64,000 nt of DNA from Antedon mediterranea (GCF_964355755.1 NC_092671.1:18352001-18416000), one strand, 5' to 3'; counted from the first letter of the stretch, positions 2,304 through 62,169 are shown. Program-made: numbers and translations. Notes: a model not told the origin generated them from the letters alone.

Positions 2304-2364
<61 letters not shown>

Positions 2365-2472
2365 CATACTGTAAATTATAGAAACAGTGCTCATATTCGG
2401 AACATGATCTCATAATCGCGTCGAGCATAGCTCATTGGCGAAAGTTCCATATTTTTTAGTTGTATGAAAAAA

Positions 2473-2544
2473 TGTCTCTGGCTGGATTCGAACCTGCAAC
2501 CTCTCGCTTACAGGGCGAGTATCATACCACTAGACCACAGAGCC
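2473..2544 (-). tRNA. tRNA-like (pseudo) core, tRNA-Pro-like body with TGT anticodon
   Basis: 72-nt cloverleaf, A box TGGTCTAGTGG, B box GGTTCGAATCC, followed by T6; mismatches in acceptor and T stems, C at position 33. Confidence 0.65.
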
Positions 2545-2862
2545 ATGTTCGAATCCAGCCAGAGACATTTTTTCATACAACTAAAAAATATGGAAATTTC
2601 GCCAATGAGCTATGCTCGACGCGATTATGAGATCATGTTCCGAATATGAGCACTGTTTCTATAATTTACAGTATGATTTATATATAATTTACACAGTGCT
2701 ACGCAACATCATTGATTTACATATACACAATATTATTTAAAAAACCGTTGCGAATTAAAGTTGGAATTTATTCTGACTTGTTAAGCCTCCACTGATTGTG
2801 AGGGCGTTTGTTGTATGAGAGAATGTATCTGGTGGGTGAAAATCTGTGATAATACCATACAT

Positions 2863-2934
2863 GGCTCTGTGGTCTAGGGGTATGATACTCGCCCTGTAAG
2901 CGAGAAGTTGCAGGTTCGAATCCAGCCAGAGACA
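2863..2934 (+). tRNA. tRNA-like (pseudo) core, TGT anticodon
   Basis: Same 72-nt cloverleaf; anticodon arm CTCGC-CCTGTAA-GCGAG; T6 terminator directly after. Confidence 0.65.
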
Positions 2935-3229
2935 TTTTTTCATACAACTAAAAAATATGGAACTTTCGCCAATGAGCTATGCTCGACGCGATTATGAGAT
3001 CATGTTCCGAATATGAGCACTGTTTCTATAATTTACAGTATGATTTATATATAATTTACACAGTGCTACGCAACATCATTGATTTACATATACACAATAT
3101 TATTTAAAAAACCGTTGCGAATTAAAGTTGGAATTTATTCTGACTTGTTAAGCCTCCACTGATTGTGAGGGCGTTTGTTGTATGAGAGAATGTATCTGGT
3201 GGGTGAAAATCTGTGATAATACCATACAT

Positions 3230-3301
3230 GGCTCTGTGGTCTAGGGGTATGATACTCGCCCTGTAAGCGAGAAGTTGCAGGTTCGAATCCAGCCAGAGAC
3301 A
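3230..3301 (+). tRNA. tRNA-like (pseudo) core, TGT anticodon
   Basis: Copy 2 of the array core. Confidence 0.65.
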
Positions 3302-3596
3302 TTTTTTCATACAACTAAAAAATATGGAACTTTCGCCAATGAGCTATGCTCGACGCGATTATGAGATCATGTTCCGAATATGAGCACTGTTTCTATAATT
3401 TACAGTATGATTTATATATAATTTACACAGTGCTACGCAACATCATTGATTTACATATACACAATATTATTTAAAAAACCGTTGCGAATTAAAGTTGGAA
3501 TTTATTCTGACTTGTTAAGCCTCCACTGATTGCGAGGGCGTTTGTTGTATGAGAGAATGTATCTGGTGGGTGAAAATCTGTGATAATACCATACAT

Positions 3597-3668
3597 GGCT
3601 CTGTGGTCTAGTGGTATGATACTCGCCCTGTAAGCGAGAGGTTGCAGGTTCGAATCCAGCCAGAGACA
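3597..3668 (+). tRNA. tRNA-like (pseudo) core, TGT anticodon
   Basis: Copy 3 of the array core. Confidence 0.65.
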
Positions 3669-3963
3669 TTTTTTCATACAACTAAAAAATATGGAACTTT
3701 CGCCAATGAGCTATGCTCGACGCGATTATGAGATCATGTTCCGAATATGAGCACTGTTTCTATAATTTACAGTATGATTTATATATAATTTACACAGTGC
3801 TACGCAACATCATTGATTTACATATACACAATATTATTTAAAAAACCGTTGCGAATTAAAGTTGGAATTTATTCTGACTTGTTAAGCCTCCACTGATTGT
3901 GAGGGCGTTTGTTGTATGAGAGAATGTATCTGGTGGGTGAAAATCTGTGATAATACCATACAT

Positions 3964-4035
3964 GGCTCTGTGGTCTAGTGGTATGATACTTGCCCTGTAA
4001 GCGAGAGGTTGCAGGTTCGAATCCAGCCAGAGACA
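3964..4035 (+). tRNA. tRNA-like (pseudo) core, TGT anticodon
   Basis: Copy 4 of the array core. Confidence 0.65.
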
Positions 4036-4182
4036 TTTTTTCATACAACTAACAAATATGGAACTTTCGCCAATGAGCTATGCTCGACGCGATTATGAGA
4101 TCATGTTCCGAATATGAGCACTGTTTCTATAATTTACAGTATGATTTATATATAATTTACACAGTGCTACGCAACATCATTG

Positions 4183-4240
<58 letters not shown>

Positions 4241-4302
4241 AAATCAGGCAAAGAACATATATATCATAATATTATATATAATAATATACAATGCCAACAT
4301 AC

Positions 4303-4483: not shown

Positions 4484-7400
4484 CTGTATAAATCAATCAA
4501 TATTTTTCCAAAATGGTGGCGTCACCAATAAATCAAATGCTTGTGTAAGTGAAGCCAATACAAAACAGAAACAAGTAAAAAAAAACCATATATATATATA
4601 TAAATCCAGAGACACACACAAAAAGTGAAAAGTTAAATCAAAACGATAAAGTAAAACAACCAGAAAAGTTAGCAGAGTTTCGGGCAACACTAGCCCTTCA
4701 ATAACTTGTATGTATGATAAGGAAATAACTGGAAGCTCAAATTCATCAGTAGAAGAGTTATGTATACATTTTTCAAATAATGAATAATAGAATATTTCAC
4801 GAGTTGAAAAATTAGTATATTTAACGAGGCGAAGCAGAGTTAAGTAGAGCACTCAATCTTTCATAAAATAAGATATTCATTTCATTCATATCGTCTTAAC
4901 ATAAGTAACATAAAATTATATTATACAATAATAAAAAAAACATTAACTTTTCAAAGTATGAATAATTACCTAATCAAATTACAGGAATATTATCAGGTGT
5001 GTTATAAAAATATATGAATTGTTTATGCTTTATATGCAGGCTCTCTGTGCACTGTACATAAACTGAAGGAAAGAGGAAACTGTCAAGTCTTCAGTTGGGT
5101 CTTAAAAAGGTTAATTAAATGTATCACATTTTTATACATTTCGAATGTTACAATAAAGATTACAATAATTACTGAATATATATAAAACAGAAGTGTATCA
5201 AGATAAAATGTTCTTTTGTAATATACCAAAATATAATATCATACCGCAAACTTGTCATTATTGATATCGGATCCCTCGACTAGATTGTTAAAATCACATT
5301 GTCCGCCGTTTACGCAGCCACACAGATACACTTCCATTGTGATGCTGACGCTTTGTGCGCCATCACTGACTTCAATCGTGATGTTTACATTATCAACAGT
5401 AGTTGGTGTCCAGGTAAACAATCCAGCTGGTTAAACAACAACAAATAGATTATAAATTTAAAATAAAAAGTGTTGATCCCTCAAAACATTAACAAATAAA
5501 TATGTATAAAATCAAACATTAAATAGGATATTTTGAAGTTTTGATCAAGTTATTCACTTACTTCATTTCATTTCTTTATTCAAATTTAAAAAAAAATAAC
5601 ATTATAAAACAGTACAGGAATGAATTCAGGGTAGCGCAAAAAAGTAACCAATGGTCAACTTATTTCCATTGTGGCCTTACGCAAAAAAAAAAAATCTGTT
5701 ACAATAGACAAAATTCCATCAAAAACCTGTTGTCTGGTTCTTTAAATTATGATTTGTCAGGTAAATAATTCGTAAATTATTATATTTCAAAAGTTAGAAA
5801 GCCATCAAATTAAGCTTAAGTTTTTAAGCATGCGGCACCAATTTCACTGATAATATACAACCTACATTCTAGTATAAAAAGGGCTTTAGATATAAAAGCA
5901 GATGATATTATTACATATTATAGATAGAAGTATATATAAGCATAATTATATACAAGTATATACAGTATAAGTATATAAGTATATACAAGTATATATAAGT
6001 ATATAAAAGTATATTTAAGAAACTATTATATATATATATATATATAAATCCAAAGGCAAATTACTGAAAAAATGACAATGCTGTGGGTATCAGTGGCTGG
6101 ATCTCAATAGAGATACAACATAAAAGCGAAAAGCTAAATCAAAACGAGAAGTAAAACAGCCAGAAAAGTTATATATATATATATATTACTTGAGTTATCA
6201 ATCTGAATTTCAGGGTATTCCATTTGTGTTGAGTACGTCAAAATATCATCCTTTTCATCACTTGCCGAAACCTGTAGTCGCACCGTTCGGTTTAATAATA
6301 CATACAGCTTGGTATTGTTCTGTAAAACTGAATAACTGCTCATGTCGTCGACAGAATTTAATACTGGTGGTATATTTTCTGAATAAAATAAAATCATACA
6401 TAATCATCATCATACTGTACATTTTCACCAATATCACTTTTATTCATCATCATCATAAAAAATATATGTATTAATCAACATTATTTTGACTATTTAAATA
6501 TTACATAAGGTAAGTTTGTTTATATACATGTAATGGTAAAGATATAAACATTTAAATTCAAGTTTAGAAATGACTTCACATAAATAATAGTAAAAACGTA
6601 CATACATAGTAAATAAATTTATTATTTGTTCTTATTTATTATTCTTAAATTTTTAAAGTTTAAGATTGTTTGATTTGAGAAAGTAGTTGAACGTCATGAC
6701 GATTTTATCATGTTTTATTGTTATTACAAGCTTTAAAAAATATAATTTATATGGTAAAATATTCTAAATGTTTGAAACTTTGAAAACAAAAAGTCACCCA
6801 AAACAGGAAAAAATATATATATTATACCTAATGTGGTTTGATCCTGTAGATTGGTTTCTTCAGTATTTCTAGTGCTCATACCAATTGCAAGATTTTGCGT
6901 TGCTAAGGCATCAAACAAACATTCCTTATTGCCCTCACACGTGTCTTCTGCTTGTTGCAGAAAGGCAGGGTCTGCGTTAGATTGTAAAACATCTAAAAAC
7001 ACTGGTTGAAAATCAGGATCATTGAAATCTGCAAAACTTTGTCCATCCGGATAAACAAATGCGGATTCGTCTTCTGTTATATTCCCTAGGAAAACATTCA
7101 CATTTATTAACTTTAAATTAATGATGTATTGACAACACAAACATGAACAATAAACGTTGTAGTATTTATAAAATCATTAACTTTAAATAAATGGTGGTTT
7201 CGTCTCGGTATTAGTCTCAAGATCATTAATATTTTGAACCATGCTTCTCAGCACAGTCAATATTTGTATATTATATTGAGGCAATATAAAGTAAAAGAAA
7301 GACAACAAAAACGTTGTTGTTAATCACAGGTTATTAATGTACAGTAAACTTACAAGTTATGGCGTAATCAAATATCTCTGACTCTGTCAAATTTCTGTTG

Positions 7401-10400
7401 GTTGCATTAAGACAATTGTTGCCATATCGTGTACAGACTTCATCACTTAGTAGACCATTCCAAACACCTGAAAAAAAAAACAGTGGTGCACAAACAATAT
7501 TATAAATTTGTAAGTAATGTGTATTACAATGAATTCTTGTGAATGTATTTACTGTTTGATACTGAATGTGAATGAACGTTGGTCAGCGCTTAACACACAT
7601 AGGAGTGGAGTTGTGGCTTGGTGGTTATGATGCTTGACTACACTCCAAGGGTCCTGGGTTGAAGTCACGTCACATGTCAGAATTTTGTCTAAGGACAAAA
7701 GTACAACTCCAATCCAAAAAAAAACCTCTCCAGCCTGTGAATTTTGCTATTGTTTCTAGCTTTCACACCAGTCCCACCCAATTTCACTTATAGTCCCAGT
7801 TTCCTAAAGACGATATATCGTAACGATAATAAGTATATCAATCGAAACGTTCTTTTCAGAACTATATATACGTGGTGTAGAGTAAACTTTTTATCATTAT
7901 ATGATAAAATAAATTATTTAAATTAATAGTTTAAACTGTTTTCCTTACCAAACAATCCTGATGTTTGGGTTTTGTATTTTTCATCAAAATTAAATACGAT
8001 ATCCAGCATCTGTTGATTAACTGCCACTCCAAAAGATAAGTCTGTGCTCCATGTAGCGTACGTACGGTTTACAGCCACCAAACCTATTTTCTCTTCATTA
8101 TAAGAAATAGAGAATCCGGGATCTTCTGAGGGCGTGTAACCTAAATAAAGTAGACATCATAATAACAGTAACAGTAGCAGCAACAATAACAATAATATCG
8201 AACATTTATAAAGCGCTCTTTACCGGGGTCTCACAGCGCAACATGAAAAGAATAACTATTGAAATAGACGAGTTTTCAGGAGAGGACGTAGACATAATTA
8301 ATTTTATTCATCATGTTTTTAAAAATATAAGAAAATTGTCCTCTTTGCCAAAATAATAAAATATTTAAACAAATTAAAAATAACCAACAAAGAAATATAA
8401 AAGCAAATTAAAAATACTTATAAAAACAAATTAAAAATATTTATAAAAACAAATTATAAATACTTATAGAAACAAATTAAAATACTTATAAAAACAAATG
8501 AAAAATACTTATAAAAACAAATTAAAAATACTTATAAAAAAAATTTAAAATACTTATAAAAACAAATTAAAAATACTTAAAAAAACAAATTAAAAATACT
8601 TATAAAAACAAATTAAAAATATTTATAAAAACAAATTAAAAATATTTATAAAAACAAATTATAAATACTTATAGAAACAAATTAAAAATATTTATAAAAA
8701 CAAATTATAAATACTTATAAAAACAAATTAAAAATACATATGAAAACAAATTAAAAATACTTATAAAAACAAATTTAAAATATTTATAAAAACAAAATTA
8801 TAAATACTTATAAAAACAAATTAAAAATACTTATGAAAACAAATTAAAAATTACCTCCTCTGATATCGTCAATTGAAAGTTGAATTGTGCCATTCACCAA
8901 TATTTCAATGTCTGTTCCATCAGCATTCAGCGTAAATTGTACCTTGAAATTAATGATATTTAAATTGATTCATGTTGTTCAAAATACTTTGTAACTAATA
9001 TAATAAAGAGGATTAGAAAAGAAGTATTTAAAATCCATCCACCATAATTATATTCCACAAAATTAGGCGGAGAAAATAATAAAAAACAATTATAATAGTT
9101 AATGATTACAACACTTATATTAAAATGATCATGTTATAAACTTATTATTACTGTTAAAAAAGATTCTAACATTACTATAAAGGCCTTCGAAAATGTAGTC
9201 AGAAGATGCTAAGACACCAATTGGTTTTACTTACGAAGGTGTTACTTTCTCCACCAGTGTGTGTACCAACAAAGGCACTGAATATTGTAGCTTGGGCGTT
9301 TGGGTCCGAGATAACACCAGACATTCGGCATTGCAATTGGAACATTCCATTGGCAACATCGACGCAAAGAAACTCTCCTTTACCATTAAACGTGTATCCG
9401 AGTCCATCGAGGGTGGTTATATGTGGATCACCAAACAACCAAGCTGGAATAAAGAGTGTTGTTTGATGAGCAATTCATACATATTTCCTCTATATTGATC
9501 CCTTAATTTTGTGTTATAGAGTAGCTTAAACACACATGCGTTTAGTGAATGATGCATAAATAATCTTGTTTGTAACTATACTGTTCTTTATTATAAACAT
9601 GTGTAAACATAAGCCCGGTCAAACTACGGTTTGACCTAAACAAAATTAGAACATAATTTATTTTTGCTGTAGGTACTTCCCAATCAATCATCTGAACAAC
9701 GGAAACAATTGCTAATTTTCATATACAGTTAACTAAAATGGCTGTTTTCTCTCAATTTTACCAAAATATAGATATTAAATGTGCAGTGCCCAGAGGAAAA
9801 ACAAAGCCGAAAAGGCTATAAACACCCAAGGCCTCCAGCGTTGGAACTTGGAGGGCCACTTAGATTTCCTTAACCAGGGGTCTCAGGTCTCTGCCTGCTT
9901 CCTCGCATTATTCCTCAACATAGTTTGGTGGTTTATAGGACTAGGTGACAAGCGAAAACACATTATTGTGGAGATTGTAGGCCGTGGCAAATTAGAAATT
10001 ACTTACCAAGGAATGGAGGGATATAGTTATCACAGGTGACTGCTGGTCTTCGTTCAAAATACAATCCACATAGATCATTATCTCTTGATTCATAGCAACA
10101 GTAGTATTGAGGCATAATATCATTTTCTGAAATAAAATGTATAGTGCAGTAAAATAATAGTAAAACCACTAGTCTTGGTTCAAAATTACTTTCTCTTAAG
10201 CTCTGTCTACACTATCAAACTTGATGTGACAAAAAATATGATGTGCCGCCCATATATGGACATGATGATGTCATATCACTACCATATTTGGGCATATCAC
10301 AGTTTTTTTGTCAAACTAGTTTGATAGTGTGGACAGAGCTTTTGACGTTTTCTAAAAAAATAATGTATATATTACTTTAAAAACATTAAAACAGATCATT

Positions 10401-13400
10401 CCTTGTTGTAAGTTACACTCACACCTCCAAAAACAGTGGCGTGAATCACAGAAGCAAAACGAAAATATCAATCTGTCCGTGATGCATATGGCATTGGAGC
10501 AGACTGCTTACATTATTTAATTTACTTATTTTTTCTTATTCCTTTCTTTAATGATTTAAAGTTTAAAAAAAACTATCACAATAGACCCATATTTTGTGCC
10601 AAACACCGGTGTCTGTAGAATGAAACCTTATGATTTTAACTTTTTTAGTCAGTTTCTGTATAGTAAAAACATTTTCCTCTGGTTGGAAAAGAGTCCAATC
10701 GGCATCATCTATATATACATTTACGTAAGGGCAAAATTCGGTAAATCGCGCCTTACTTCTAGAATTTTTACTCGATGGTATATAAAGTTGGTTCGTACTT
10801 TCGGTACTGATTTTAACCACCTAACGTAACCCTGTTTACTAATTAAATTAGATATTGACGATTAAAACGAATTTAGGTTCAACGATTTGCCCCAAATCGG
10901 GGTGTTTTCCGATCGTGGTATACACTGTCTAATGGATGTCCATCTTGAAAAATACCCGCCACAAAAATGCGAGGAGGCTTCGCATTTTCCTATCTCCTCC
11001 TACGATAATTGATTTTAATAGCTGAAAACCGATTGAACAGCTAGAGTACAGTATCATAATGTTGAAGACAGGCCGATTTTCTTTAAAAAATACTATTTTG
11101 ATAGATTTAATATACGTTTATACAAATGTATTGATTTGCGATGAATGGAACATTCCAATCTCTGTTCCACAAGCGTCTATTCCCTCAGGCGTCGTAAAGG
11201 CAAGTACTGTATACTCATAACAGAAATTCGATCCATTTTTTTTTTTCAATCTGTGCTGCAGAGGTTGGACATAAATTTTTTTTTAACGGATAATGTGCTG
11301 GCGTTTTCACTCGCCGTATATTATGTATACATCTTTATTATTGCAGTTAAACCACCCACATATCACCCTTCCCTAACTGGCATGAGTAGCGTTGTAAAGC
11401 CACAGTAGAGCCTGATAGGCCTACTGTGCATCATATGCCCTAAACGCAAAACAACTTTGGTGGGTAGGGTAGGAAACAAACTTAAGTATGACTTGGCTCT
11501 AAGAAACAATTGAAAACCATTAGGCCTACTATTTAAGTTGAGTTAGATAATTTAATATTTATTACCGATTAAATCGAATTTATGATTTTCCCCGAACAGA
11601 GGTGGTTTTCACAAATTGTTTTACATTATATAAACATACACGTCGTAGTGATGTATCGTTATACATGTACTGCTATTTCAATCTACTAGGACGGTGATAC
11701 CGATAGTTTCAACAAAGTATTACATCACAATGTTTTACTGTGTTTAGTGGTATATTATTTGTAAAACATGAAAACAATTAATATTTTGTTACTAAATGGA
11801 TAAAGAATATATTTAAAAATTGTTCCTCTTTGCACCCATCCTCTTCCCCATCCCTCAATCCTAATGTTACATACAAAACACAAATTAAGTTTGTTTAAAT
11901 TTGACTTAAACAATTGGTCTCATTTTTTGACAAGTTTCTCTTTCGGAAGTAATTCCCAGGGTGCTAATTTTAGTTGAGTACATAAGTCAGTGTCTATTTA
12001 TTCGTTCCTGTGTAAACGACATGTATTATTGTACGTACATTTGAAATCTACGGAAGCGTTAAAGTGCCATTCACTTGGCGACTTGTCGAGATAATTTATC
12101 TTATCAAGTCGACATAAATATGACTATTATGTCGACATAGTAACCATTATATGTCTACATTGCGAGATAGTTTATCTTGCCAAGTTGATTCCCTAATAAA
12201 TACATGTCGACTAGACGAGATAGATCAACTTGCCAAGTTGACTTTACTTCGACGCTTGAAGCGTCCGAGTGCCATCCACTTACCGACTTGTCGAGATAAT
12301 TTATCTTGTCAAGTCGACATAAATATGGCTATTATGTCGACATAATAATCATTATATGTCGTCATGGCGAGATACATTATCTTGCCAAGTTGACTTCACC
12401 AAAATTGCATGTCGACATGACAAGTAGTGTTGATATTCTATACAAAATGTCCACATGTGTCTATTTTAACGCATACTAACGACATGTGAGGCCGACGACG
12501 ACCGGCCGAATAGGCAAGTCCAAATAATTTAGAATTACCAAGATAAATATCATCGAATTCCGTCTGTGGATGGCACTTGGACGCTTCAAGTGTCGAAGTA
12601 AAGTCAACTTGGCAAGTTAATCTCTCGTCTAGTCGACATGTATTTATTAGGGAATCAACTTGACAAGATAAACTATCTCGCAATGTAGACATATAATGGT
12701 TATTATGTCGACATAATAGTCATATTTGTGTCGACTTGACAAGATAAATTATCTCGACAAGTCGCCAAGTGAATGGCACTTTAACGCTTCCGTAGAAATC
12801 GTCAGTTTTTTAACGCTGAAATTATTATGTATTCGAGAACCATCTGTGGGCACGACCTAGATGGTAAAAGCGAGCGTACCATCTAGTAACATACAATTGA
12901 TGAAGTCTCGCTGACAGCTTGACGAAACTGTCTTGACACGTAAGTTAATTTACTGGTTTACAATTATTGAAATATATTTTAAAGTTTATGTATTTTTAAT
13001 CGGAATTGCTGTCAACCTTTCTTTGTATTTTTACAAAGAGACAAATAAAGTTTCTTGTATATAGTTTTCATTTTTACAATTTTCAAAGGTTGTGACGTTA
13101 AATTAAAAATGTAGGAAAAAGTGTCTTTAAATAACCATAACCCCCTAGAGAAAATCTATTGTAATGTCTTACCTACATGATCGAGGTACTGATTTACCAA
13201 AAAGAATCTTCCAAATGTGTAACCGTAGCGGAATGCATAGCTTGTAAACCCAAGTCCTTGATAACCTTCTATCAGGGAAAATCCATTCAACCTATAACAA
13301 CATTCAGTCCCAGACAGGTCACGGTTGAAAGTTGAGCTTTGTAGACAGATATAACTACCCAATGCTGAAATAAAATAAATTATAATTGAAATACAAGAAG

Positions 13401-16400
13401 AAATTCTAATGCACCTACTGTTCAACTCTTAAAACAAATTTGTTTCTGCTTCATTCTCCTATTTATTTTTAAATTTGTTTGTTGTTTGTTTCTGTTCTGT
13501 ACATAGTTTATTAATTCATTTTACCTACATGTCATTGTAGACAAAAAATCAATGTGAAATGATAATATAATCAAGATGCATTATTAACTACTGCAGTAAC
13601 TACTGTACATTTTATTATAAACTCTTCTTTGTTTTAGTGGTAAATCATATGTTTATTGTAGCGTATTGTAACAATGAAACCAACTAAAATCATCCGGTAT
13701 TATTGCAGAAAAATTGTAGTTACTGCAGTAACTGCAGTAGAATAATGTTTCTTCAGGTTGATAAAATCTGTGGGTATGACACTAAACTTATTTCATGACA
13801 TTTCAGTTTCTTGGTACATATTGTTGTGATTGTATAGTATAGTATACTATAACTCTACAGGGGGTAATAATACACAGTAGTATAATAGTAAACATCTTAC
13901 CATTATTTAGAAGAGCCACAACAAGTGAAAACAATCCAGAAGAGATTCCTCTGTTTCCCAATAGGGTGTTTATATTTGTTCCTCTACCATGGCCAGAAGG
14001 ATTCAGTGATATTTGAGAAACAAATCGATATCTGCCATCTAACGCGGCCAGTAGAAGCCCACAGGGACACGTTCCTTGATTTCCGGGGTAAACATAGTTT
14101 GACGCCTTATCCTCTTCATACCAGGTTATACAACGCTTCCTTGGGTTTACAGTGTCATCTGTATTTGCTTCTAATCGGACAGCATATTGGCCCTTTCTTC
14201 CAGTATTTCCATTGACCTCATCAGGTCTATAAGGATTGCTGGAAAGAGGAGCCTGTGTTTGGAAGTCAACGGTTTCAAAGGAAGGAATGTTGTAGCCAAT
14301 TGTAGCATCAGCAGGTGTCTCTAGTGCTCTGTCCCATCTCATCTGTCTCTCTTCAAAGAAGAACATGGCAAAACTATATTGACCATCGGTCAAAAGAATA
14401 GCCTGGAAGGTATTTCGCTATAAAAAGAAATGATGCAACAAAATGATATATTATATACTAATAAGATAATCAACACCATATATGACACAATTTATATGTC
14501 TCAAAGTGCTCAAAATCAAAGTTTGGACCGATAATACCATTGGCGAAGACCCAATTTACTCTTACAAGTCAATTCCAGGACATACAAATTATAATCTGGC
14601 CACAGACCAACCAGGTAACATTCAGAATATAAAAAAAATATCAAAACTAGAAGAATTAATACTTACATGATCATTACTGGTACTAACTGGTCTTTGAGGT
14701 ATGTCTACCCATGTGACTTTTAATACCCAGGTTGGAGAAAAGCTTGATGGGACAACACCTTGATACAGATCTATTAGTCTTTGCTTTACAGTGTCAATAA
14801 AAGTCATCTCTTCTGTCGTGTCAGTTGTGTATTCCTGTTGATAATGAAGGCAACAACACGTCATTAATCCATAATATAAATAGGTAGTTTTCATATTGCG
14901 ATGACCAGGATGCAACGCAAGGACGTAAGCGCAATGGAGGAAATTTGACCAATCACAAAGAATAAATTATTCGAACTGTTGCTTGGCCATTGATAAGATG
15001 TTTTTCCATTACAGTGACATACTGTTTTTAACTACTGTAACTACTTTACTCTTTCTCTGAAAGTGGTGGACATATATAAATAAGAAATAATCATCATACC
15101 CGAAAGAAAACATTTCCAATATCACTACTCAGGTCTCCATCTGTCCAAAAAACAGAAATTATGTTTCGCAGGTCAAAACTTTGAAACTGAGTAGATGAGG
15201 GTCTTGGATAACTCATCTTTTCCTCGTCATCATTTACTAGCACAAATATTCCATTTTCTGTGAACTGAAAATTGGTATTGTATAATATTTAGGTAATGTT
15301 TAAAGGATAGAAAAGTGAGTTCAATCCTATTCAAGACAAACATAATACAGAAGCTGCTCTACGTAAAATAAGTGTTATTACAAAAATGGAGTGGAGTGGA
15401 GTTGTTTTTAAAAACGTATCTGCTTTATTTGTGTAATATAACATCCACAAAAAAAGTTGCTAAATAATTGCTTCACATGTTAAAGAGAATAAATGTGGTT
15501 ATTGCAGTGACTGCAGTATGATAATGTTGACATGTTCCTTTAGTTCTATCTTAAACTTACATAAACAATCGGTAGGAAATTATGTCCATAAGGAAAGCCA
15601 AACTGAGGATCAAAATTTCTGGACACTAATTCTCCCAGTGGTCCTACGGAGAGCAATTCTTCATCACCATTTTCGATCCCACTTGGATAGTATAGAATTT
15701 CTAAAGAAAAAATATGTATTGATGAGTACAGTCGCTGCAATACCATTGTACTCGCTGTAATACCATTGTGCTCGCTGCAATACCATTGTGCTCGCTGCAA
15801 TACCATTGTGCTCGCTGCAATACCATTGTGATCGCCGCAATATCATTGTACTCGCTGCAATTCCATTGTGATCGCCGCAATACCATTGTGATCGCCGCAA
15901 TGTCATTGTCCTCACAGCAATACCATTGTGATCGCTTCAATATCATTGTGCTCGCTGCAATATCATTGTGCTCGCTGCAATATCATTGTGATCGCCGCAA
16001 TATCATTGTGCTTGCCGCAATATCATTGTGCTTGCCGCAATATCATTGTGCTCACCGCAATATCATTGTGCTCACCGCAACATCATTGCGTTCGCAGCAA
16101 TATCATTGCCCTCACCGCAATATCATTGTGCTCGCCTCAATATCATTGTGCTCACAACAATTTCATTGTGCTTGCCGCAATCTCATTGTGTTCGCTGCAA
16201 TAGCATTGTGCTCGCTGCAATATCATTGTGCTCGCCGCATCATGTACATAAATTGTACATAAATCATGTACATAAATTGTACATAAATCATGTACATAAA
16301 TTGTACATAAATCATGTACATAAATCATGTACATAAATTGTAATAAGGTAATAGAATACTTGCCTGCACAAAAAGTTCCATCACCCTCATATCCGTCGTT

Positions 16401-34092: not shown

Positions 34093-34148
34093 TTTTAGCT
34101 CTACTTTACCGTATTGAGCACTTTCTAGACGGTTACATTGAACCGAAC

Positions 34149-34209
<61 letters not shown>

Positions 34210-34666: not shown

Positions 34667-34669
34667 ATT

Positions 34670-34739
<70 letters not shown>

Positions 34740-41133: not shown

Positions 41134-41206
41134 GTTCTCGGGTGGGACTCGAACCCACGACCTCCAGATCACTAGCCAGGCGTTCATACCTCTAGACCAC
41201 GGAGCT
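41134..41206 (-). tRNA. Degenerate tRNA-like core (AGT anticodon) of a solo element
   Basis: A box TGGTCTAGAGG, perfect T arm GTGGG-TTCGAGT-CCCAC, weak acceptor stem, T6 shortly downstream. Confidence 0.55.
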
Positions 41207-42729: not shown

Positions 42730-43340
42730 GGTCCTATAAACCCCAAAACGGAAACAAAAGGGACTCAGAATGTTGCAAATACCTACCAAACAAGAATAGA
42801 TAATTGTTAATTAATTATGAAAACCCAAATTTTATAGCAAAAATCGTCCGAATTTATGTTAAAAACGATCATAATTTAGCAACAAAAACTGACACCAAAC
42901 GAGCGTATTTATGGCACACCAGTGCCTTTAATAGGAGAACAATGAACAATCTTACTTTGATCGTTTTACATAATATAATTTTTTAGAAAAAAATCACATC
43001 GACAGAAAACAAAGGTTATCAGAGCCTTTGATAATATATTAAATATGATTTTATTAAGAAATGTGTTATTATTTATGTTAGTACATAAATATACGAAATA
43101 ATGTTCAATACTCATTGTTCTATTAAAGGCACTATGTTCGTGCGATATTCTATGACTTTGATTATACTCTCGTTTGATTTAAGTTTTAGTTGCTAAACTC
43201 ATGGTTTTTAACATAAATTCGGACGATTTGTGCTATAAAACTTGGGTTTTCATAATTAATTAACAATTATCTACTCTCGTTTGGTAGGTATTGCAACATT
43301 CCGAGTCTCGTTTTTGTTTGCGTTTGGTGTTTATAGGACC
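42730..43340. mobile_element. Foldback MITE with about 160-bp TIRs
   Basis: GGTCCTATAAAC...GTTTATAGGACC; long inverted arms. Confidence 0.75.
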
Positions 43341-48939: not shown

Positions 48940-49676
48940 AAAGCTTTTAAGAAATCTCAACTTCATAAAGCGCAAAATAATAGTAATTGTTGGGTAAGCG
49001 ATGTAAAACATATGTTATCCTCTATTGGTCATGGAAACATATGGTTTTCACAAAATAATGTCCTTGATAAATTTTATATAGTTAATAAAATAAAAGAAAG
49101 GCTAACCGATATGGAACGCCAATCCTTTCTTGAAAGCATAAATATTTCTTCAAAATTAAGATACTATAAAATGTTCAAAAACAATTTCGGAGTAGATGGA
49201 TACTTACTACAGACCCTTGATACTAGATATAAGCGAGCTTTAAATCAACTAAGACTGGGCATACTGCAACTAGAGGTAGAAAGGGGAAGATGGAAAAGAA
49301 TAGAGCGCAGCAATAGGTTATGTAAAATATGTAATATAAATGAAGTTGAAGATGAATATCATTTTGTTACAGTTTGCTCTCGTTACAAGGAAATCAGAAA
49401 AAAATGTATACCTTCTTTATTATTTGAAAATCCAAATACTTTTAAATTCTGCCGTTTAATGTCATCACAGGATCCACTAATTATTGATAATCTATCTAAA
49501 TATATTTATCATGCTTATAAGCTAAGGTATATGTTTTGCTTAGAGAACGAAATTAATTAATTCATTTATCTTGTGACCATAAATTGCTTTATTTTTCAAT
49601 GTAATTATTATTTTGTTAATTACTAGGGGCCAGAGGCCTAAAGTAAATAAAGTCAGGCGATAAGCCTGAATGAATG
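48940..49676 (+). mobile_element. RTE-X-like LINE 3' fragment
   Basis: LEVERGRW..RLCKIC..VEDEYHFVTVC zinc finger; 3' UTR GGGCCAGAGGCCT, AATAAA, hairpin, (AATG)n. Confidence 0.78.
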
Positions 49677-53720: not shown

Positions 53721-54120
53721 TGTATAAATTATTATTGAAAACAAAAAAGAAACGTAACGCAACATAAGTAACGCACGAGAAGATAAGCAAACAAATATAA
53801 CCACGAGACATAAAACTAGACACAGGAGTAAGAAAATCATTTTTAATATTTTTGGTTTTTTTTATATTCGTATTTTAAAATAATGTATATAATCTGTATA
53901 TAAATGAATTATATGTCAAAAAATACTACCGAAAATAACTATACAACATTAGTAAATGTATCTCCTACAGTACATTTATTAGTTAAGTGTTCACAATTTT
54001 AGATGTTGAGAATTATAGAACAAAAAAAAAATACTAGAAAATTATGAAAAAAGGTGGATAACAGAAAAGAAATATTAATGTTCTGATTCCAAGAACAGTA
54101 ACGTTGATAAAAATAAAAAA

Positions 54121-55082
54121 TATATTCTCCAGTCCACAGAACGTCTCAGGACTGTTTTTCCGGAACCACCCATTATTGCATTTCGTAGACCTCCCAACCT
54201 TCGTGATATATTAGTCAGATCCAAATTTAAGAGTGAAATTAACTCTCATGACAGCCAAAATTTGGGCAGTCACCTTTGCGGCAAATCTTGCAAAACTTGT
54301 TCATTGGTTGATTCTACTGAAAAATTTGAGAGTAACCAAACTGGCGGCATTTTTCGGATAAGACAATCAATTAATTGTCTAACCAAAAACGTCATTTATC
54401 TCATATACTGTAATATTTGTGGCAAACAGTACGTCGGAGAAACAAAAAACACTCTCCGTATGAGAATGACACAACATAGATCAGCTATCAAAACATTAAA
54501 GCTTGATCAACTTGTATCCGAACATTTTAATTCAGCTGGTCACTCGATTGCAAATTTCAGAGTTATTGCAATAGACCACGATGTCAAATGGAGCGACAAA
54601 ACTCGCAAAGACAAAGAAAACCACTGGGAATTACTACTTAAAACCACAAAACCTTTTGGACTTAACATTAGGAACATACTCCCAGATCGGTAAAATTATT
54701 CCATTGACTACCAACATTTAAGTTTCAATATTAACCACCATTTAAGCTGTTTTTTAGTCTCATTCCAAAATTGTTTATATCTCTACCAAGCTACCTTCTT
54801 TGTTTTCCACTCTTATTCAGACTCCACCCTGGCTCCCTTTGTTATATTTCTTTTATTCATGTCCACCCAGGCAGCACTTGCCAGCTTTATACTATGGCGT
54901 TATCCAAATTCCTTCACTTGCACTGATGAAGGGCTAGTGTTGCCCGAAAGCTCTGCTAACTTTTCTGGCTGTTTACTTTATCGTTTTGATTTAGCTTTTC
55001 GCTTTTTATTTTTGTATCTCCATTGAGATCCAGCCACTGATACCCACAGCATTGTCATTTTTCTCAGTAATTTGCCTTTGGA
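54121..55082 (+). mobile_element. Neptune-like Penelope element, 3' fragment (GIY-YIG)
   Basis: PIIAFRRPPNLRDILV, CGKSCKTC linker, NVIYLIYCNICGKQYVGET, VSEHF, PFGLN; hammerhead in 3' UTR; ends in TA. Confidence 0.88.
54920..54956 (+). ncRNA. Minimal type I hammerhead ribozyme
   Basis: GCA-CTGATGA-A-GGGC TAGTGTT GCCC-GAAA-GC-TC-TGC; loop-less palindromic stem III as in Penelope minimal hammerheads. Confidence 0.8.
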
Positions 55083-57180
55083 TATATATATATATTTATA
55101 TATATACAGGTATATATATAAACACAGTAGGCAAAGAACATTAATTCTGAACCGCCCGGTGATATACTGAAATTTAATTAATTAATTTGAAACGATAAAG
55201 ATGAGGAAATCTGTGAGAATGAGAAAAAGTCGCCCCAACCGAGACCCGAACTCGGACCGCCTGCTTGATATGCAGTTGCCCTAACCATTAGACCACTGGT
55301 CTAACCACATGGTATTGTTCAAACTCGATTGTATAGCGACTCTTTAACACTCTCGGCGTGGTACGGCGGAACAGCAATAGTCCTCAGTTGTACACACGCG
55401 CAACAGAGATCAAATTGATACGCCCTCATCTTACAGTATTTTTATTCACGAGGCGGGATCTCCGAAGAGATACTTTTATATATATAACCACAGTAGGCAA
55501 AGAACATTAATTCTGAACCGCCGGTGATATACTGAAATTTAATTAATTAATTTGAAACGATAAAGATGAGGAAATCTGTGAGAATGAGAAAAAGTCGCCC
55601 CAACCGAGACTCGAACTCGGACCGCCTGCTTGATATGCAGTTGCTCTAACCATTAGACCACTGGGGCTTTCATGGTATTGTTCAATCTCGATTGTATAGC
55701 GACTCTTTAACACTCTCGGCGTGGTACGGCGGAACAGCACTAGTCCTCAGTTGTACACACGCGCAACAGAGATCAAATTGATACGCCCTCATCTTACAGT
55801 ATTTTTATTCACGAGGCGGGATCTCCGAAGAGATACTTTTATATATATAAACACAGTAGGCAAAGAACATTAATTCTGAACCGCCCGGTGATATATTGAA
55901 ATTTAATTAATTAATTTGAAACGATAAAGATGAGGAAATCTGTGAGAATGAGAAAAAGTCGCTCCAACCGAGACTCGAACTCGGACCGCCTGCTTGATAT
56001 GCAGTTGCCCTAACCATTAGACGACTGGGGCTTTCATGGTATTGTTCAAACTCGATTGTATAGCGACTCTTTAACACTCTCGGCGTGGTACGGCGGAACA
56101 GCACTAGACCTCAGTTGTACACACGCGCAACAGAGATCAAATTGATACGCCCTCATCTTACAGTATTTTTATTCACAAGGCGGGATCTCCGAAGAGATAC
56201 TTTTATATATATAAACACAGTAGGCAAAGAAAATTAATTCTGAACCACCCGGTGATATACTGAAATTTAATTAATTAATTTGAAACGATAAAGATGAGGA
56301 AATTTGTGAGAATGAGAAAAAGTCGCCCCAACCGAGACTCGAACTCGGACCGCCTGCTTGATATGCAGTTGCCCTAACCATTAGACCACTGGGGCTTTCA
56401 TGGTATTGTTCAAACTCGATTGTATAGCGACTCTTTAACACTCTCGGCGTGGTACGGCGGAACAGCACTAGACCTCAGTTGTACACACGCGCAACAGAGA
56501 TCAAATTGATACGCCCTCATCTTACAGTATTTTTATTCACAAGGCGGGATCTCCGAAGAGATACTTTTATATATATAAACACAGTAGGCAAAGAAAATTA
56601 ATTCTGAACCACCCGGTGATATACTGAAATTTAATTAATTAATTTGAAACGATAAAGATGAGGAAATTTGTGAGAATGAGAAAAAGTCGCCCCAACCGAG
56701 ACTCGAACTCGGACCGCCTGCTTGATATGCAGTTGCCCTAACCATTAGACCACTGGGGCTTTCATGGTATTGTTCAAACTCGATTGTATAGCGACTCTTT
56801 AACACTCTCGGCGTGGTACGACGGAACAGCACTAGTCCTCAGTTGTACACACGCGCAACAGAGATCAAATTGATACGCCCTCATCTTACAGTATTTTTAT
56901 TCACGAGGCGGGATCTCCGAAGAGATACTTTTATATATATAACCACAGTAGGCAAAGAACATTAATTCTGAACCGCCGGTGATATACTGAAATTTAATTA
57001 ATTAATTTGAAACGATAAAGATGAGGAAATCTGTGAGAATGAGAAAAAGTCGCCCCAACCGAGACTCGAACTCGGACCGCCTGCTAATCTAAATACAATC
57101 GAGTTTGAACAATACCATGAAAGCCCTAGTGGTCTAATTGTTAGGGCAACTGTCTCGGTTGGGGCGACTTTTTCTCATTC

Positions 57181-60100
57181 AGGGAAATAGCGTTTGTGAC
57201 TATTTACTTGCGCCGTACGAAGAATTCAACAATATTTCCTTGTTGATAGACTAAAGTGTGGAGTCTTATCACATGCCGGTCAACTTTGAAATTAAAATTG
57301 AAAATACTGAATATAATAATCTTTATAATAATAGTAATGAAAATGATAATTTTAAAACGCTAAATAAATATCAATGGAAAGAAAACTATAAAGACACATT
57401 TAGGGCACGTTGGGAACATGAAACAGTCGAGAAGTTAGACAACAGTTTCATGAGCGCAATAATTCAAAACAAAATCGACGAGGCTGTAACATGTCTTCAA
57501 AAAACTTTTGAATACACTTGTAGCGGAATATCTAAAGTATTTACACATTTTACCGCTAATACCACTATTCAAAATGTTAAGAAAACAAATAACTGGTTTG
57601 ATCGCGAATGCCTTACTTTAAAAAAAGATTTAAAAAAGAATTGAATAAAGCTTTAGCTTTAAGAAATAACGATCAACAGAATTCATTTAATAATTATATC
57701 AAACTTAAAAAGGAATACAAAAAACAATAAGACAAAAGAAATATAACCATCAAAAACAAAAACGTGACGAAATCTTAATAGCAGCCAGTAATAGGAGCTC
57801 AAAACAATTTTGGTCAAAATTAAAAACTCATAAACAAACAATAACTTCTGAAATAACAATTAACGAATGGCGAGATCATTTCCAATCACTGTTTGAACCC
57901 CCCGAGCCAGTTAACAAAGTTACAGACGAAATAGTACATAACATTGTTAACGAAAACGATAACCTCAATTCAGAAATTGACTTGGGTGAAATCAAACAAG
58001 CATTGAAAATGCAGAAATCAGGAAAATCTCCTGGTATGGATGGTATGTTTTTAGAATATATCTTAAATGCACCCAATTTATTATTTGATAATCTAAAACT
58101 TATTTTTAATTCAATTTTTCAGTTTGGCCAATTCCCAACACAATGGGCGACGAGCATGATAATTCCTATTTACAAAAAGGGCAAAAAGAATAAGCCAGAA
58201 AATTACAGAGGCATTGCTCTTATTCCGATACTTGGCAAAATGTTGTTACACATCCTTAAATCAAGATTAGACCACTTCACTGAAAATAACAACATTATTT
58301 ATCAAGAGCAAGCAGGTTTTCGTAAGGGTTTTTGCACATTCGACAATATTTTATTTTAAATAGTATCATTGCAAAATATTTAAGTAAAAAACGAGGTAGG
58401 GTATTCTGCTGTTTCATTGATCTCAAGCGTGCCTTCGATAGTATAAATCATAGTTTTCTTTTACTTAAATTAAAACGAATAGGTGTAAATGGTAATATGT
58501 ACAATATAATTCAGTCTATGTATAACAATTTGTCTGCACATGTAAAAATTGGTAACAAAGTGACATTTCCATTTGACTGTTCTATTGGAATACAACAAGG
58601 TTCACCTTTATCCTCTTTACTTTTCAACATATTTATGAATGATTTAAGTTATGATCTAAATCAGAGTAGAGATAGAGACAAAATACAAGTTGAAGACAGC
58701 TTTATCAATCATTTATTATACGCTGATGATTTAGTATTATTTGGAGATACGGTAAGGGGCTTACAAATTTTAATAAATAAACTCGAAATTTTTTGTGACA
58801 CATGGGGTCTCAGTGTAAACATAAATAAATAAAAAATAATGGTATTTAAAAAGGGTGGGAAACTAAAATATTTTGAAAAATGGTATTACAGGAATATTCA
58901 AATGGAGGTTGTTACGACTTATAATTATTTAGGAGTGGAATTTAGTTCAAATGGCCAGTGGAACAAAGCACTTGAATATAATTGTCAAAAAGCAAACAAC
59001 GCGTTATTTTCCGTTAAATCTTTTATTAGTCGAAATATGAAATATTTACCAGAAAATACATGGAATTATATTTTTGACACAAAAATATTACCAATTTTAA
59101 TTTACGGCAGTGAAATATGGGGGTTTTCTAACCAAATAATTATTAATAATTTCCACACGCGTTTTGCGAGGTTTATTTTGAACATTGGAAAAAGTGCCCC
59201 TAGCGCAGCCGTAACTACAGAATTAGGCAGAGTTTCCTTGCATGTCGATTGTTTAATTTCAATTATTCGTTTTTGGTTGCATATTATTGACATGGATAAA
59301 AATAGATTTATTTTTAAATGTTACAGTTTTCAGTTAAGAAAAATTAACATAAATGAATATTGCTGGGCTAGTCAGGTAAAACATTTACTTTGTTCAACCG
59401 GCTTTGGTTATGTTTGGTACAAACAAAATTGCATCTTCACAAATTTCTCAAAGTCTTGCCTTTTTGTTTAACTGGTCATTAAGATCTGGTGTTATTCCAA
59501 GTGAATGGAAATGTGCTAAGGTTACTCCGCTTTATAAAGGAGGATGTAAACATGAACTTAACAACTACCGTCCAATATCTGTTATACCTATTGCTATGAA
59601 AGTTTTTGAAAGATGCATCCATAATCAAGTTATGAATCATATAAATGAGTTTAATTTATTATGTAAAAATCAATCTGGTTTTAGGTCGTTACATTCAACT
59701 TCTACTACACTGATAGATGTATGCAATTATATATATAAAAATATTGATAATGGCTTGGTAACTGGAGCAATTTTTCTTGACCTAAAAAAGGCGTTTGATA
59801 CGGTAGACCACGATATTTTATTACGTAAATTATGCACCTTTGGAATGATAAACACTGAGCTTGCATGGTTCAGTAATTATTTAAAAAATCGCAAACAATT
59901 TGTTAATTTTAATGGAAAAAAATCTGAAATTTTAAATGTCAACTATGGGGTACCACAAGGCTCAATTCTTGGCCCTTTGTTGTTTATTTTATACATAAAT
60001 GACTTACATGATAGTGTTGATGGGATTTGTAAAACAGTCCTCTATGCAGACGACACTGCGCTTTTTTATGCATGTAAATCAAATGAAGAGCTTACAACAG

Positions 60101-61671
60101 TTTTAACTGAACAGTTGGAAAATGTAAAACAATGGTTAGATAAACATAAATTAACTCTAAACATTGATAAAACCAAATACATGCTTTTTGGTACTCATGC
60201 ACGTGTTAATAAAACAACAGATGAAACAGCAATTCCGATTGAGAAAGTTGAAACGTTTAAATATTTGGGACTTACATTTGATGAACAACTCTCATGGAAA
60301 GTACATATTGATTCTATATGTGCAAAACTATCAAAAATTCTACATCTATTTTATAGATTGAAAAGTTTTACATCTCCTAAAATTATTAAAAGATTATACA
60401 ATGCTCTATTTTTATCACATATTGACTATTGTTCAACAGTCTGGGGTACTGGTTCAAACGCCCATATTTTAAAATTGCAAAGGGTACAAAATAGAGCTGC
60501 ACGATTAATACTAGGTGCTGATATTCGAACTCCTGTTAGACAAATGCATTATGATTTAGGTTGGCTAACAATTAAGACAAGAATTGAATATCATACAATT
60601 TGTACAATATTTAGATGTTTACAAGAATCTGTACCTTCATACTTATGTAATGTTTTGCAATATATTAGTAGTGTACACAATATTCAAACCAGAAACTATG
60701 AAAACAATCTGTTGTATTTGCCCAGATGTAACCTCGAAATATACAAACGTAGTTTTGTTTATTATGGAAGTTCACTCTGGAATGGCCTACCTTATGAATT
60801 AAGAAAACAAAACAATTATAACCGTTTTAAATCACTTGTTAAGATTCATTTATTGTTGCCGGTGGTCTAGGATGGTTCCAGTGAAATATATTTAAATATG
60901 GTATAAAAGTATAATAATAATGAGAACATGCATTGAAGTTTAGTTTTAGTTTAAGTTTTAGTTTAAGTTTAGTTTAAGTTGTTTTCAAATTTTGTTTAAA
61001 TGTGCCGTAGGGCCCCTCGGAAGAGCAGTTTTATTTCATTACTGAAAGGGCTACCCTACTAAAAGAAAACGAAATAAATAAATAAATAAATCAAATGATT
61101 GAAGACAAGAAATTATTTATTAAAGAATTTAAATTACGACTGATTGATTTAGAAAAACAAAAATATTTTGAACAATTTTCTTTACATTCAAAACTAAAAT
61201 ATTTTAAGTATTTTAAAACGAAAATTGAAATAAGTTATCATTTGTTACACTTAAAAGATTGGAAACGTAAAAATATATTCACAAAATTTTGTTTAGGAGT
61301 GTTAGATTTGGAAATAGAAAAAGGAAGATGGAACAAAATCCCACTTCAAAACCGTTTATGTAAATTATGCAATATGAATTCTATTGATGACGAATTTCAT
61401 TTTATGTTAGTCTGTCCATATTATTCCGAACTCAGAAACTTATATATTCCTAATTTTTATCACACGTTCCCTTGTTTAAATAAGTTTTATTTTTTAATGT
61501 GCAACACTAGAGTAGTCCAAGATTTAGCAAATTTTGTTTATTTAGCTTACGAAAATAGAAAATATTATTTTGCAACCCAACAAGAAAATATTATTGTATG
61601 ATTTGTATGTAAGATATAAGGGCCAGAGGCCTAAATATTGTGGAAATAAAACCCCGTTAGGGGAACGAACG
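57181..61671 (+). mobile_element. RTE-X-like LINE, 5'-truncated within the APE domain, with stops and frameshifts; split by a nested LINE
   Basis: GNSVCDY..SYHMP, KSPGMDG, NYRGIAL, QAGFRKG, FIDLKRAFDS, QGSPLSSLLF, LLYADD; WYKQ rejoins MIEDK across the insertion; zinc finger; tail AACGAACG. Confidence 0.85.
59428..61091 (+). mobile_element. L2/Crack-like (CR1 group) LINE nested in the RTE-X element; RT frame intact to 60870
   Basis: NYRPISV, QSGFR, FLDLKKAFDTVDH, GVPQGSILGPLLF, YADD; 3' stem GTAGGG...CCCTAC and (AAAT)n; CAAA on both sides. Confidence 0.88.
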
Positions 61672-62006
61672 ATATCAAGCAGGCGGTCCGAGTTCGAGTC
61701 TCGGTTGGGGCGACTTTTTCTCATTCTCACAGATTTCCTCATCTTTATCGTTTCAAATTAATTAATTAAATTTCAGTGTATCACCGGGCGGTTCAGAATT
61801 AATGTTCTTTGCCTACTGTGTTTATATATATATATAAGTATCTCTTCGGAGATCCCGCCTCGTGAATAAAAATACTGTAAGATGAGGGCGTATCAATTTG
61901 ATCTCTGTTGCGCGTGTGTACAACTGAGGACTAGTGCTGTTCCGCCGTACCACGCCGAGAGTGTTAAAGAGTCGCTATACAATCGAGTTTGAACAATACC
62001 ATGAAA

Positions 62007-62078
62007 GCCCCAGTGGTCTAATGGTTAGGGCAACTGCATATCAAGCAGGCAGTCCGAGTTCGAGTCTCGGTTGGGGCG
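62007..62078 (+). tRNA. tRNA-like core (tRNA-Arg-like 5' half, ATC in anticodon position); representative of array 2
   Basis: GCCCCAG/TTGGGGC acceptor, perfect T arm CCGAG-TTCGAGT-CTCGG, then ACTTTTT; atypical anticodon loop ATATCAA. Confidence 0.65.
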
Positions 62079-62120
62079 ACTTTTTCTCATTCTCACAGAT
62101 TTCCTCATCTTTATCGTTTC

Positions 62121-62169
<49 letters not shown>

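Follow-up and report, generated by a model that had tools for sequence, protein, structure and literature searches.

Two families of tandemly repeated elements, designated A1 and A2, were analysed in a 64,000-nt stretch of the Antedon mediterranea genome (NC_092671.1:18352001-18416000; the whole stretch is referred to below as the window). Each unit carries an internal tRNA-like core and, upstream of it, a leader complementary to the 3' part of that core. The two families are real, high-copy and structurally conserved, and they are probably mobilised by a Penelope-like element (PLE). On the reading favoured here, which is considered likely though not compelling, both non-coding families were copied into TA microsatellites by a Penelope-like reverse transcriptase (RT)/endonuclease from a multi-unit RNA; the tRNA core is likely an RNA polymerase III (Pol III) promoter, and the leader is predicted to unfold it. 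An earlier note had proposed these arrays as a new class of ribozyme-free, Penelope-mobilised element. Its arrays, cores, leaders and arms proved largely real, but the extent of the second array, the role of the Penelope ends and the status of a third element required revision. Family-wide evidence comes from public contigs, and the window itself holds one locus per family.

Two unrelated units of one design

Tandem Repeats Finder (TRF) delimited a 367-bp unit present in 4.5 copies at 2547-4193 (A1) and a 364-bp unit present in 5.4 copies at 55111-57085 (A2). The two units have no alignable sequence in common (best blastn E value 0.055), as the earlier note had described, and neither encodes anything. 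The features of the two loci are listed below.

2361-2548, minus strand: A1 inverted arm, starting 3-4 nt before its tRNA core (2473-2544) and stopping at 3' site 1
2544-4186, plus strand: A1 array, 4.5 x 367 bp, starting in the T loop and ending at 3' site 2; cores at 2863, 3230, 3597 and 3964 (TRF, ARAGORN, Rfam)
3544-3584, plus strand: A1 anti-tRNA leader (one copy), pairing with tRNA positions 45-72 and the trailer to +86
3585-3592, plus strand: A1 octamer AATACCAT, ending 4 nt before the core; predicted pairing with the D loop
3597-3674, plus strand: A1 tRNA-like core with T6; core of 72 nt with 18/21 cloverleaf pairs
4147-4186, plus strand: A1 'tail', 39 nt separating two alternative 3' ends, each GATTT then TA
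4186-4237, no strand: (TA)n 3' of A1 (TRF)
4238-4262, minus strand: remnant resembling the A2 3' end, 25 nt, within the TA tract after A1; score reached in 0/300 shuffles
55120-57085, minus strand: A2 array, 5.4 x 364 bp, ending at 3' site 2; cores near 55235, 55596, 55960, 56324 and 56688
56324-56395, minus strand: A2 tRNA-like core with 20/21 cloverleaf pairs, followed by T5
56400-56445, minus strand: A2 leader (56408-56445) and octamer (56400-56407), one copy
57093-57180, plus strand: short inverted A2 arm, 88 bp, with a partial leader and a tRNA with a 28-nt internal deletion
57181-61671, plus strand: two nested fragments like long interspersed nuclear elements (LINEs), between the A2 arms; RVT_1 matches
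61672-62126, plus strand: A2 plus arm, 455 bp, 1.25 units; core at 62007-62078; stops at 3' site 1, 64 nt before site 2
62125-62166, no strand: (TA)n 3' of the A2 plus arm (TRF)

Previously taken for one array, 55120-62125 thus comprises an array on the minus strand, the 88-bp arm in inverted orientation, some 4.5 kb of LINE-derived sequence and, last, a plus arm of 455 bp. In the LINE-like pair at 57181-61671, the inner fragment lies at about 59420-61090 and has an AAAT tail, and the 3' end of the outer fragment resembles 48940-49650. [quoted passage not shown]

The copies within each array are not identical, and private changes are shared in blocks: between copies 1 and 2 in A1, and between copies 3 and 4, 4 and 5, and 2 and 6 in A2. 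Such sharing is what a multimeric template or local duplication would be expected to give. Hence, either copying likely started from a multimer whose units differed, or the arrays were later reshuffled.

ARAGORN identified 10 tRNA-like cores in the window, with isotypes Thr(TGT) and Asp(ATC), and Rfam model RF00005 gave 12 matches of up to 52 bits, five in A1, six in A2 and one at 41137-41204. The A1 core may resemble tRNA-Pro and the A2 core tRNA-Arg(CCT). The cores retain A and B boxes, and with at least 60 nt of such sequence they qualify as tRNA-like in the sense of SINEBase. Oligo-T follows directly 3' of the cores (T6 in A1 and T5 in A2), so that the internal core of about 72 nt with a terminator stands as originally reported. 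Other T4 runs are lacking in the units, which is a weak sign of a template made by Pol III (P 0.08, 0.16 and 0.37). Truncation, inversion and the great number of variant contigs point to a mobile repeat more than to a functional tRNA gene cluster.

The description of the units as ribozyme-free also held as far as recognisable motifs are concerned, though a ribozyme of an unknown type may be present. Neither a hammerhead core nor a structured hammerhead was found in the A1 or A2 unit, sense or antisense, by a scan that recovered 3/4 PLE hammerheads of the window in its structured form. A fold like that of the hepatitis delta virus (HDV) ribozyme was found in neither unit, in a scan without a positive control. 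Rfam searches to E 10 revealed no ribozyme in the units; they missed the tested PLE hammerheads too and so carry little weight. The patterns used for twister, pistol and hairpin ribozymes were crude motifs without positive controls.

The leader comprises 40 nt ending 13 nt before the core and is complementary to the T arm, the 3' acceptor strand and the trailer, in agreement with the earlier description. Predicted energies of the leader duplex are -47.3 kcal/mol for A1 and -44.7 kcal/mol for A2 (z -5.9 and -5.0), and in neither family were they reached in any of 1000 shuffles. For a solo tRNA-like element, S3 (described below), the energy is -31.7 kcal/mol, a value that 3 of 1000 shuffles attained. 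Pairing on the opposite strand is much weaker, at -31.2 (A1), -27.0 (A2) and -24.0 (S3) kcal/mol, and each leader fits the tRNA of its own family far better than that of the other (-46.6 versus -17.8 and -43.4 versus -14.2).

Within the leader duplex, sense-strand G-U changes exceed A-C changes by 6:1 in A1, 6:0 in A2 and 7:4 in S3 (12:1 for A1 and A2 pooled; 19:5 with S3, P 0.003), the scoring having treated both transition types alike. Common duplex variants, for A2 among those listed, are neutral or stabilising: three in the A2 leader have ddG values of -2.1, -3.0 and 0.0, and two in A1 have -2.8 and -3.1, whereas 8.5% of the 129 possible A2 leader changes give ddG below -0.5. This sequence signal makes it highly probable that the duplex is maintained on the sense strand, at the RNA level, and has a function there.

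The octamer AATACCAT is present in both A1 and A2 and ends 4 nt upstream of the core, as the earlier note had pointed out. It is not, however, independent of the leader fold: its predicted pairing with the D loop gives the same three-way junction in both units and leaves the anticodon arm free. The two competing folds envisaged in the note, a rod and a cloverleaf, are indeed predicted, the leader fold being more stable than the acceptor-stem fold by 22 kcal/mol in A1 and 16 kcal/mol in A2. With the leader present, the predicted probability of the cloverleaf is about zero. Without it, a cloverleaf is predicted for the A2 core; none is predicted for the A1 core even alone.

At the A1 inversion junction (2546), a perfect anti-tRNA stretch has formed anew directly before the core. 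This offers a simple origin for the leaders, which may have arisen by a PLE-type inversion and then come under selection.

S3 had been presented as a third, solo type that repeats the leader design.

41085-41280, minus strand: solo tRNA-like element S3; core at about 41134-41205; weaker anti-T-arm leader

The duplex of S3 is supported by the shuffles given above, but it is weaker, and neither the octamer, a TA end nor a tandem copy was found at the locus. Membership of S3 in the same kind as A1 and A2 is doubtful.

The same design was sought elsewhere. The pattern of octamer, 4 nt and tRNA start occurred at no locus in viral contigs and at five loci (L001-L005) in metagenome contigs. These were rejected as relatives, since they look like dispersed, tRNA-headed elements in animal-like DNA that resemble short interspersed nuclear elements (SINEs) and have no tandem copies. 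After L004 was dropped as near-identical to L002, a leader duplex was not found in the four loci examined (z -1.2 to 0.2). The T-arm/trailer pattern gave no match in viral contigs, and two exact core patterns gave none in prokaryote genomes.

Insertion anatomy and mode of copying

In all four outer arms (4/4) the sense 3' end faces outward into (TA)n and the 5' side is truncated, and each family has a head-to-head inverted, 5'-truncated arm (2361-2548 in A1 and 57093-57180 in A2). Both observations of the earlier note were thus borne out. The 3' ends come in pairs, 39 nt apart in the A1 arms (both at GATTT sites) and 64 nt apart in the A2 arms. PMC8557442 names as habits of PLEs a TA bias, partial tandem insertions, a neighbouring copy that is inverted and truncated on its 5' side, and a tail of 30-40 bp at one of the ends; PMC11167929 explains the tail by two internal RT start sites. 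The A1 tail of 39 nt fits the printed range. That of A2, at 64 nt, is longer and near the value for the Neptune-like ends of the window, copies of which stop at sites about 58 nt apart. Next to the arrays lie the following PLE features.

1-562, minus strand: Hydra-like PLE inverted arm, 5'-truncated, matching 1024-1585 at 100% identity; built in the same way as the tRNA arrays
558-2313, plus strand: Hydra-like PLE, 5'-truncated, with RT, C-terminal GIY-YIG-like domain and CxCX5C linker; hammerhead at 2212-2249; TA end
2314-2361, no strand: (TA)n common to the Hydra-like 3' end and the A1 inverted arm
54079-55082, plus strand: Neptune-like PLE 3' fragment with a GIY-YIG open reading frame (ORF); hammerhead core at 54923-54949; TA end
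55082-55120, no strand: interrupted (TA)n common to the Neptune-like end and A2

The labels Hydra-like and Neptune-like rest on motifs, without a tree. The CxCX5C linker, the C-terminal endonuclease-like domain and the hammerhead are given as Hydra clade motifs in the passages on that clade (PMC8557442), and 54079-55082 is Neptune-like by its linker. The Hydra-like ORF gave no relative in viral contigs, no informative PDB match and no Pfam match above the cut-off. Short copies of the Neptune-like 3' end with two different stop sites occur at 4600-4700 and 6046-6170 (both minus strand), the second flanked by TA on both sides. At 34207-34671 (plus strand), between two TA tracts, a unit bearing a hammerhead is repeated in partial tandem, with cores at 34342 and 34627 and a 25-nt extension after the first copy; it is a candidate retrozyme or solo PLE end. 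A further hammerhead-bearing piece with one core mismatch and an inverted arm adjoins a TA tract at 33885-34092.

The units had been placed right after a Penelope 3' end. They do adjoin such ends, but these are of two PLE types and meet the units tail to tail in a common TA tract, with no significant sequence match. The autonomous Penelope sharing the unit 3' end, to be looked for according to the note, was not found among the four PLE-type 3' ends of the window (P 0.12-0.96). Two motifs common to A2 and the Neptune-like end, one of 11 nt and one of 7 nt, were considered as shared 3' sequence and set aside as suggestive, not significant. As most long TA tracts in the window flank PLE-type ends and no sequence is held in common, the adjacency is attributed to a common TA target.

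In the run search with A1, 23 runs were listed. A1 words occurred in 19 of the 23, labelled as coded organisms A-E, as an aquatic metagenome or not at all, and at least half of the words in nine; among these listed holders no RNA run with A1 was found. One A1 unit matched 1417 contigs in run X1, 157 in X4, 836 in X6 and 2 in X2, and one A2 unit matched 7594 in X1, 962 in X4, 5763 in X6 and 81 in X5. The RNA nature of X4 is only a guess, and the records of X2 (A1) and X5 (A2) are at low depth and possibly from admixed DNA. A1 and A2 are thus large, high-copy families.

Summed contig depth, which is not a copy number and is distorted by variant density and by the edges of the query stretch, peaks in the trailer and declines over the mapped 3' ends, with no step at the tRNA's 5' end. 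For A1 in X1 it is 429-471k in the leader, 433-504k in the 5' half of the tRNA and 931-965k in the trailer. For A2 in X1 it is 1.7-1.9M in the tRNA, 1.8-1.9M in the first leader bins, 2.4-2.7M in the trailer and 0.8-0.9M in the tail; the A2 profile in X4 has a sharp trailer peak. These profiles fit 3'-anchored, variably truncated copies that include the leader, not monomers starting at the tRNA, and the earlier view that the units are not ordinary SINEs agrees with them.

The loose contig ends considered were 20 of the 304 rows for A1 and 24 of the 949 for A2, and the joints considered were 15 for each family. Among these, several loose ends of A1, at 3401-3459 in runs X1, X4 and X6, are followed by TA, and the strand changes at 4/15 joints in A1 and 1/15 in A2. 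One contig runs head to tail around A1. A divergent A2 subfamily, with loose ends at 56344-56354, has a more canonical T arm and a fully paired anticodon stem.

According to the favoured reading, a TA-targeting PLE very probably carries out target-primed reverse transcription, initiated at one or the other of two AU-rich sites within the RNA. Transcription would, on balance, be driven by the A and B boxes as in Sm-alpha (see below), with some transcripts passing the oligo-T. The acceptor stem and the T arm are what RNase P and RNase Z recognise. Since the cloverleaf is predicted to vanish when the leader is present, the leader would shield a multimer from both enzymes: in every downstream unit it would be made first and capture the T arm, acceptor strand and trailer, and RNase P and RNase Z would then spare the multimer, left whole as template. 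The capture and the sparing, taken together, are about evenly balanced.

Several observations weigh against this reading. The proposal that A1 and A2 are Penelope-mobilised non-autonomous elements is supported by their architecture and paired 3' ends but not by any 3'-end match to the PLEs of the window, and non-autonomous PLEs generally have the 3' end of their helper, according to the part of PMC8557442 that deals with them. Several of the A1 loose ends seen continue into non-TA sequence, and the A2 loose ends listed, mainly from the divergent subfamily, document no TA ends. The nearly perfect A2 cloverleaf (20/21 pairs) is more than a promoter alone needs. Because the oligo-T lies upstream of both 3' ends, a full template made by Pol III would need read-through, or alternatively an RNA polymerase II source. 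Among the variants listed, rarer ones of A2 (3-8% of depth), several of them at CpG, weaken the duplex by up to 6 kcal/mol. Finally, the check for leader-tRNA covariation proposed in the note yielded the strand-specific G-U bias (19:5 with S3), but a two-sided compensatory change was not found within either family among the contig variants listed.

A second explanation, unlikely but with some claim to attention, retains the same PLE helper and makes the tRNA a processing signal in place of the hammerhead. The multimer would be cleaved by RNase P at every tRNA +1, the leader at the 3' end would fold onto the tRNA at the 5' end, the ends would be ligated, and the circle would template rolling reverse transcription. 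Folded tRNA-first, both units are predicted to form an octamer:D-loop helix, the anticodon arm and a long rod around the same three-way junction, with a 4-nt 3' overhang; circular-fold z values are -4.3 and -4.5 for the sense strand and -2.6 and -1.5 for the other strand (40 shuffles). The 20/21 pairs of the A2 cloverleaf and its formation without the leader are in keeping with processing, as are two copying breaks that lie no more than 4 nt from tRNA +1 (one at the A1 inversion, the other at the fold-back patch of one A2 copy) and a unit size equal to that given for animal retrozymes in the passages on them (PMC7229834). However, the cloverleaf is predicted at about zero with the leader and is absent from the A1 core even alone, coverage has no step at tRNA +1, and the blocks of private changes among array copies are not given by a single monomer circle. 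Replacement of the hammerhead by the tRNA as processing site, as the note had suggested, is therefore possible but not the first choice, the leader fold being ahead by 16-22 kcal/mol and the units non-identical. It is also doubtful, though conceivable, that A1 and A2 represent a widespread undescribed animal class of RNA parasites that depend on Penelope and use a tRNA mimic with its built-in antisense strand for the job of the retrozyme hammerhead, the cloverleaf being cut by host tRNA enzymes and the rod clamping the ends for ligation into a circle of about 365 nt. If true, this would be a ribozyme-free route to genomic circular RNAs.

It is improbable that A1 and A2 are ordinary LINE-dependent tRNA SINEs or tRNA pseudogenes turned into local satellites by recombination, the leader being a neutral fossil left by an old inversion and the TA a coincidence. 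Junction 2546 does show that an anti-tRNA leader can arise mechanically, local duplication is seen in the arrays, LINE pieces adjoin A2, and SINE-derived satellites are known (PMC10702118, in the part concerned). A neutral fossil would nevertheless have to account for the strand-specific G-U bias, the stabilising common variants and a fold common to both families, unrelated as they are. Leader and tRNA are covered equally, 4/4 outer arms have their sense 3' end in TA at two defined sites, and the four SINE-like metagenome loci have no leader duplex (z -1.2 to 0.2). For A1 and A2 this explanation is already largely refuted.

LTR integration does not produce variable 5' truncation or head-to-head arms (LTR, long terminal repeat). 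A Helenus-type TRIM (a terminal-repeat retrotransposon in miniature) with the tRNA inside the LTR, or a rolling-circle DNA element with arrays and a hairpin that function as DNA, is very improbable: Helenus does carry tRNA-like sequence internally and is able to build tandem arrays (PMC10886601), and G-T pairs form in single-stranded DNA also, but the units have variable 5' truncation and head-to-head arms, no LTR/internal alternation, no sense purine tract of at least 9 nt and no visible 4-5-bp target-site duplication (TSD).

Other features of the window

The window is AT-rich animal DNA with exons of a mucin-like gene on the minus strand and many mobile-element pieces. An open frame of 3019 codons at 20083-29142 (minus strand) is built from 15-bp tandem repeats, and exons for NIDO (13806-14417), LDL-a (19004-19459) and C8-3_MUC4 (6736-7173) lie on the same strand; to judge from these domains, frame and exons form a large mucin-like gene. 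A LINE fragment (RVT_1) with a 7-bp tandem tail at its end lies at 36433-37970 (plus strand). Palindromic or inverted-repeat elements, like miniature inverted-repeat transposable elements or fold-back elements, occur at 12047-12796, 42730-43340 and 10198-10341. Fragments of an ordinary tRNA-like SINE family are present at 7600-7680 (plus strand), 34880-34960 (minus strand) and 35369-35405 (minus strand).

Relation to known elements

The comparisons below rest on the passages of the cited sources that concern each element. Sm-alpha and Sj-alpha (PMC6765202, PMC2770079) resemble A1 and A2 in being high-copy, non-autonomous tandem units with a tRNA-derived Pol III-type promoter, and multimeric transcripts have been proposed for Sm-alpha. 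In Sm-alpha a hammerhead frees the units, whereas A1 and A2 have an anti-tRNA leader and no hammerhead; PLE-type inversions and tails go unmentioned in the passages on it. Animal non-LTR retrozymes (PMC7229834; 10.64898/2026.07.22.740005) are likewise non-coding tandem units, of 150-450 bp, with structured RNA, and have been proposed as non-autonomous PLE passengers. They carry a type I hammerhead per unit and are often related to the PLE pseudo-LTR (pLTR), in contrast to A1 and A2, which have a tRNA core, no hammerhead and no detected pLTR homology. The term 'tRNA' occurs 0 times in the retrozyme preprint (10.64898/2026.07.22.740005).

Non-autonomous Chlamys elements such as MRC1 (PMC8557442) are, like A1 and A2, PLE passengers with multicopy head-to-tail insertions, in a clade that is mostly hammerhead-free. 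Unlike A1 and A2, they generally share the 3' end of autonomous families and occur in green algae, not animals, and no tRNA is described for them in the passages concerned. Autonomous Hydra, Neptune and Naiad PLEs (PMC8557442; PMC11167929) have the same tandems, inverted 5'-truncated copy, optional tail and (TA)n bias, but encode RT and a GIY-YIG endonuclease, whereas A1 and A2 encode nothing.

Helenus TRIMs (PMC10886601) also hold tRNA-derived sequence inside a non-SINE, non-autonomous retroelement and sometimes form arrays. They differ in having LTR structure, a primer-binding site, a polypurine tract and 4-5-bp TSDs and in being mobilised by LTR elements, while A1 and A2 consist of a single repeated unit with ragged 5' ends. 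With tRNA-derived SINEs (SINEBase, PMC3531059) the units have in common an A/B-box core, a length below 1 kb and a high copy number. SINEs, however, are non-tandem, begin with the tRNA head and depend on LINEs; A1 and A2 are tandem, with a conserved upstream leader and oligo-T after the core, although monomers may exist elsewhere. As read from their sequence, A1 and A2 work like retrozymes or Sm-alpha but fail the definitions of both (no hammerhead), of SINEs (tandem, head internal) and of Helenus (no LTR structure).

Full-text searches turned up no account of PLE passengers that bear a tRNA, lack a ribozyme and carry an anti-tRNA leader; Repbase, Dfam, supplements and most subscription journals lay outside these searches, and consensus files in them may contain such families. 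The combination and the leader thus appear new within that literature, but the term 'new class' used in the note was an overstatement, as Sm-alpha and MRC1 cover parts of the design.

Passengers derived from small RNAs have been described for LINEs (SINEs) and for LTR elements (Cassandra, Helenus and Ajax), and those described for PLEs are hammerhead retrozymes and pLTR derivatives. If the favoured reading is true, A1 and A2 would fill this gap for PLEs and would show that a PLE enzyme can copy RNA that has neither a hammerhead nor evident pLTR homology. The units would then be short substrates for studying how PLEs recognise their template, how tandem and inverted insertions originate and what relevance the hammerhead has. 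In genome annotation they swell the number of tRNA genes called, and it is likely that they are wrongly entered as SINEs or tRNA clusters. The surprising part is that two unrelated families have both kept an anti-tRNA leader, and with the same predicted fold.

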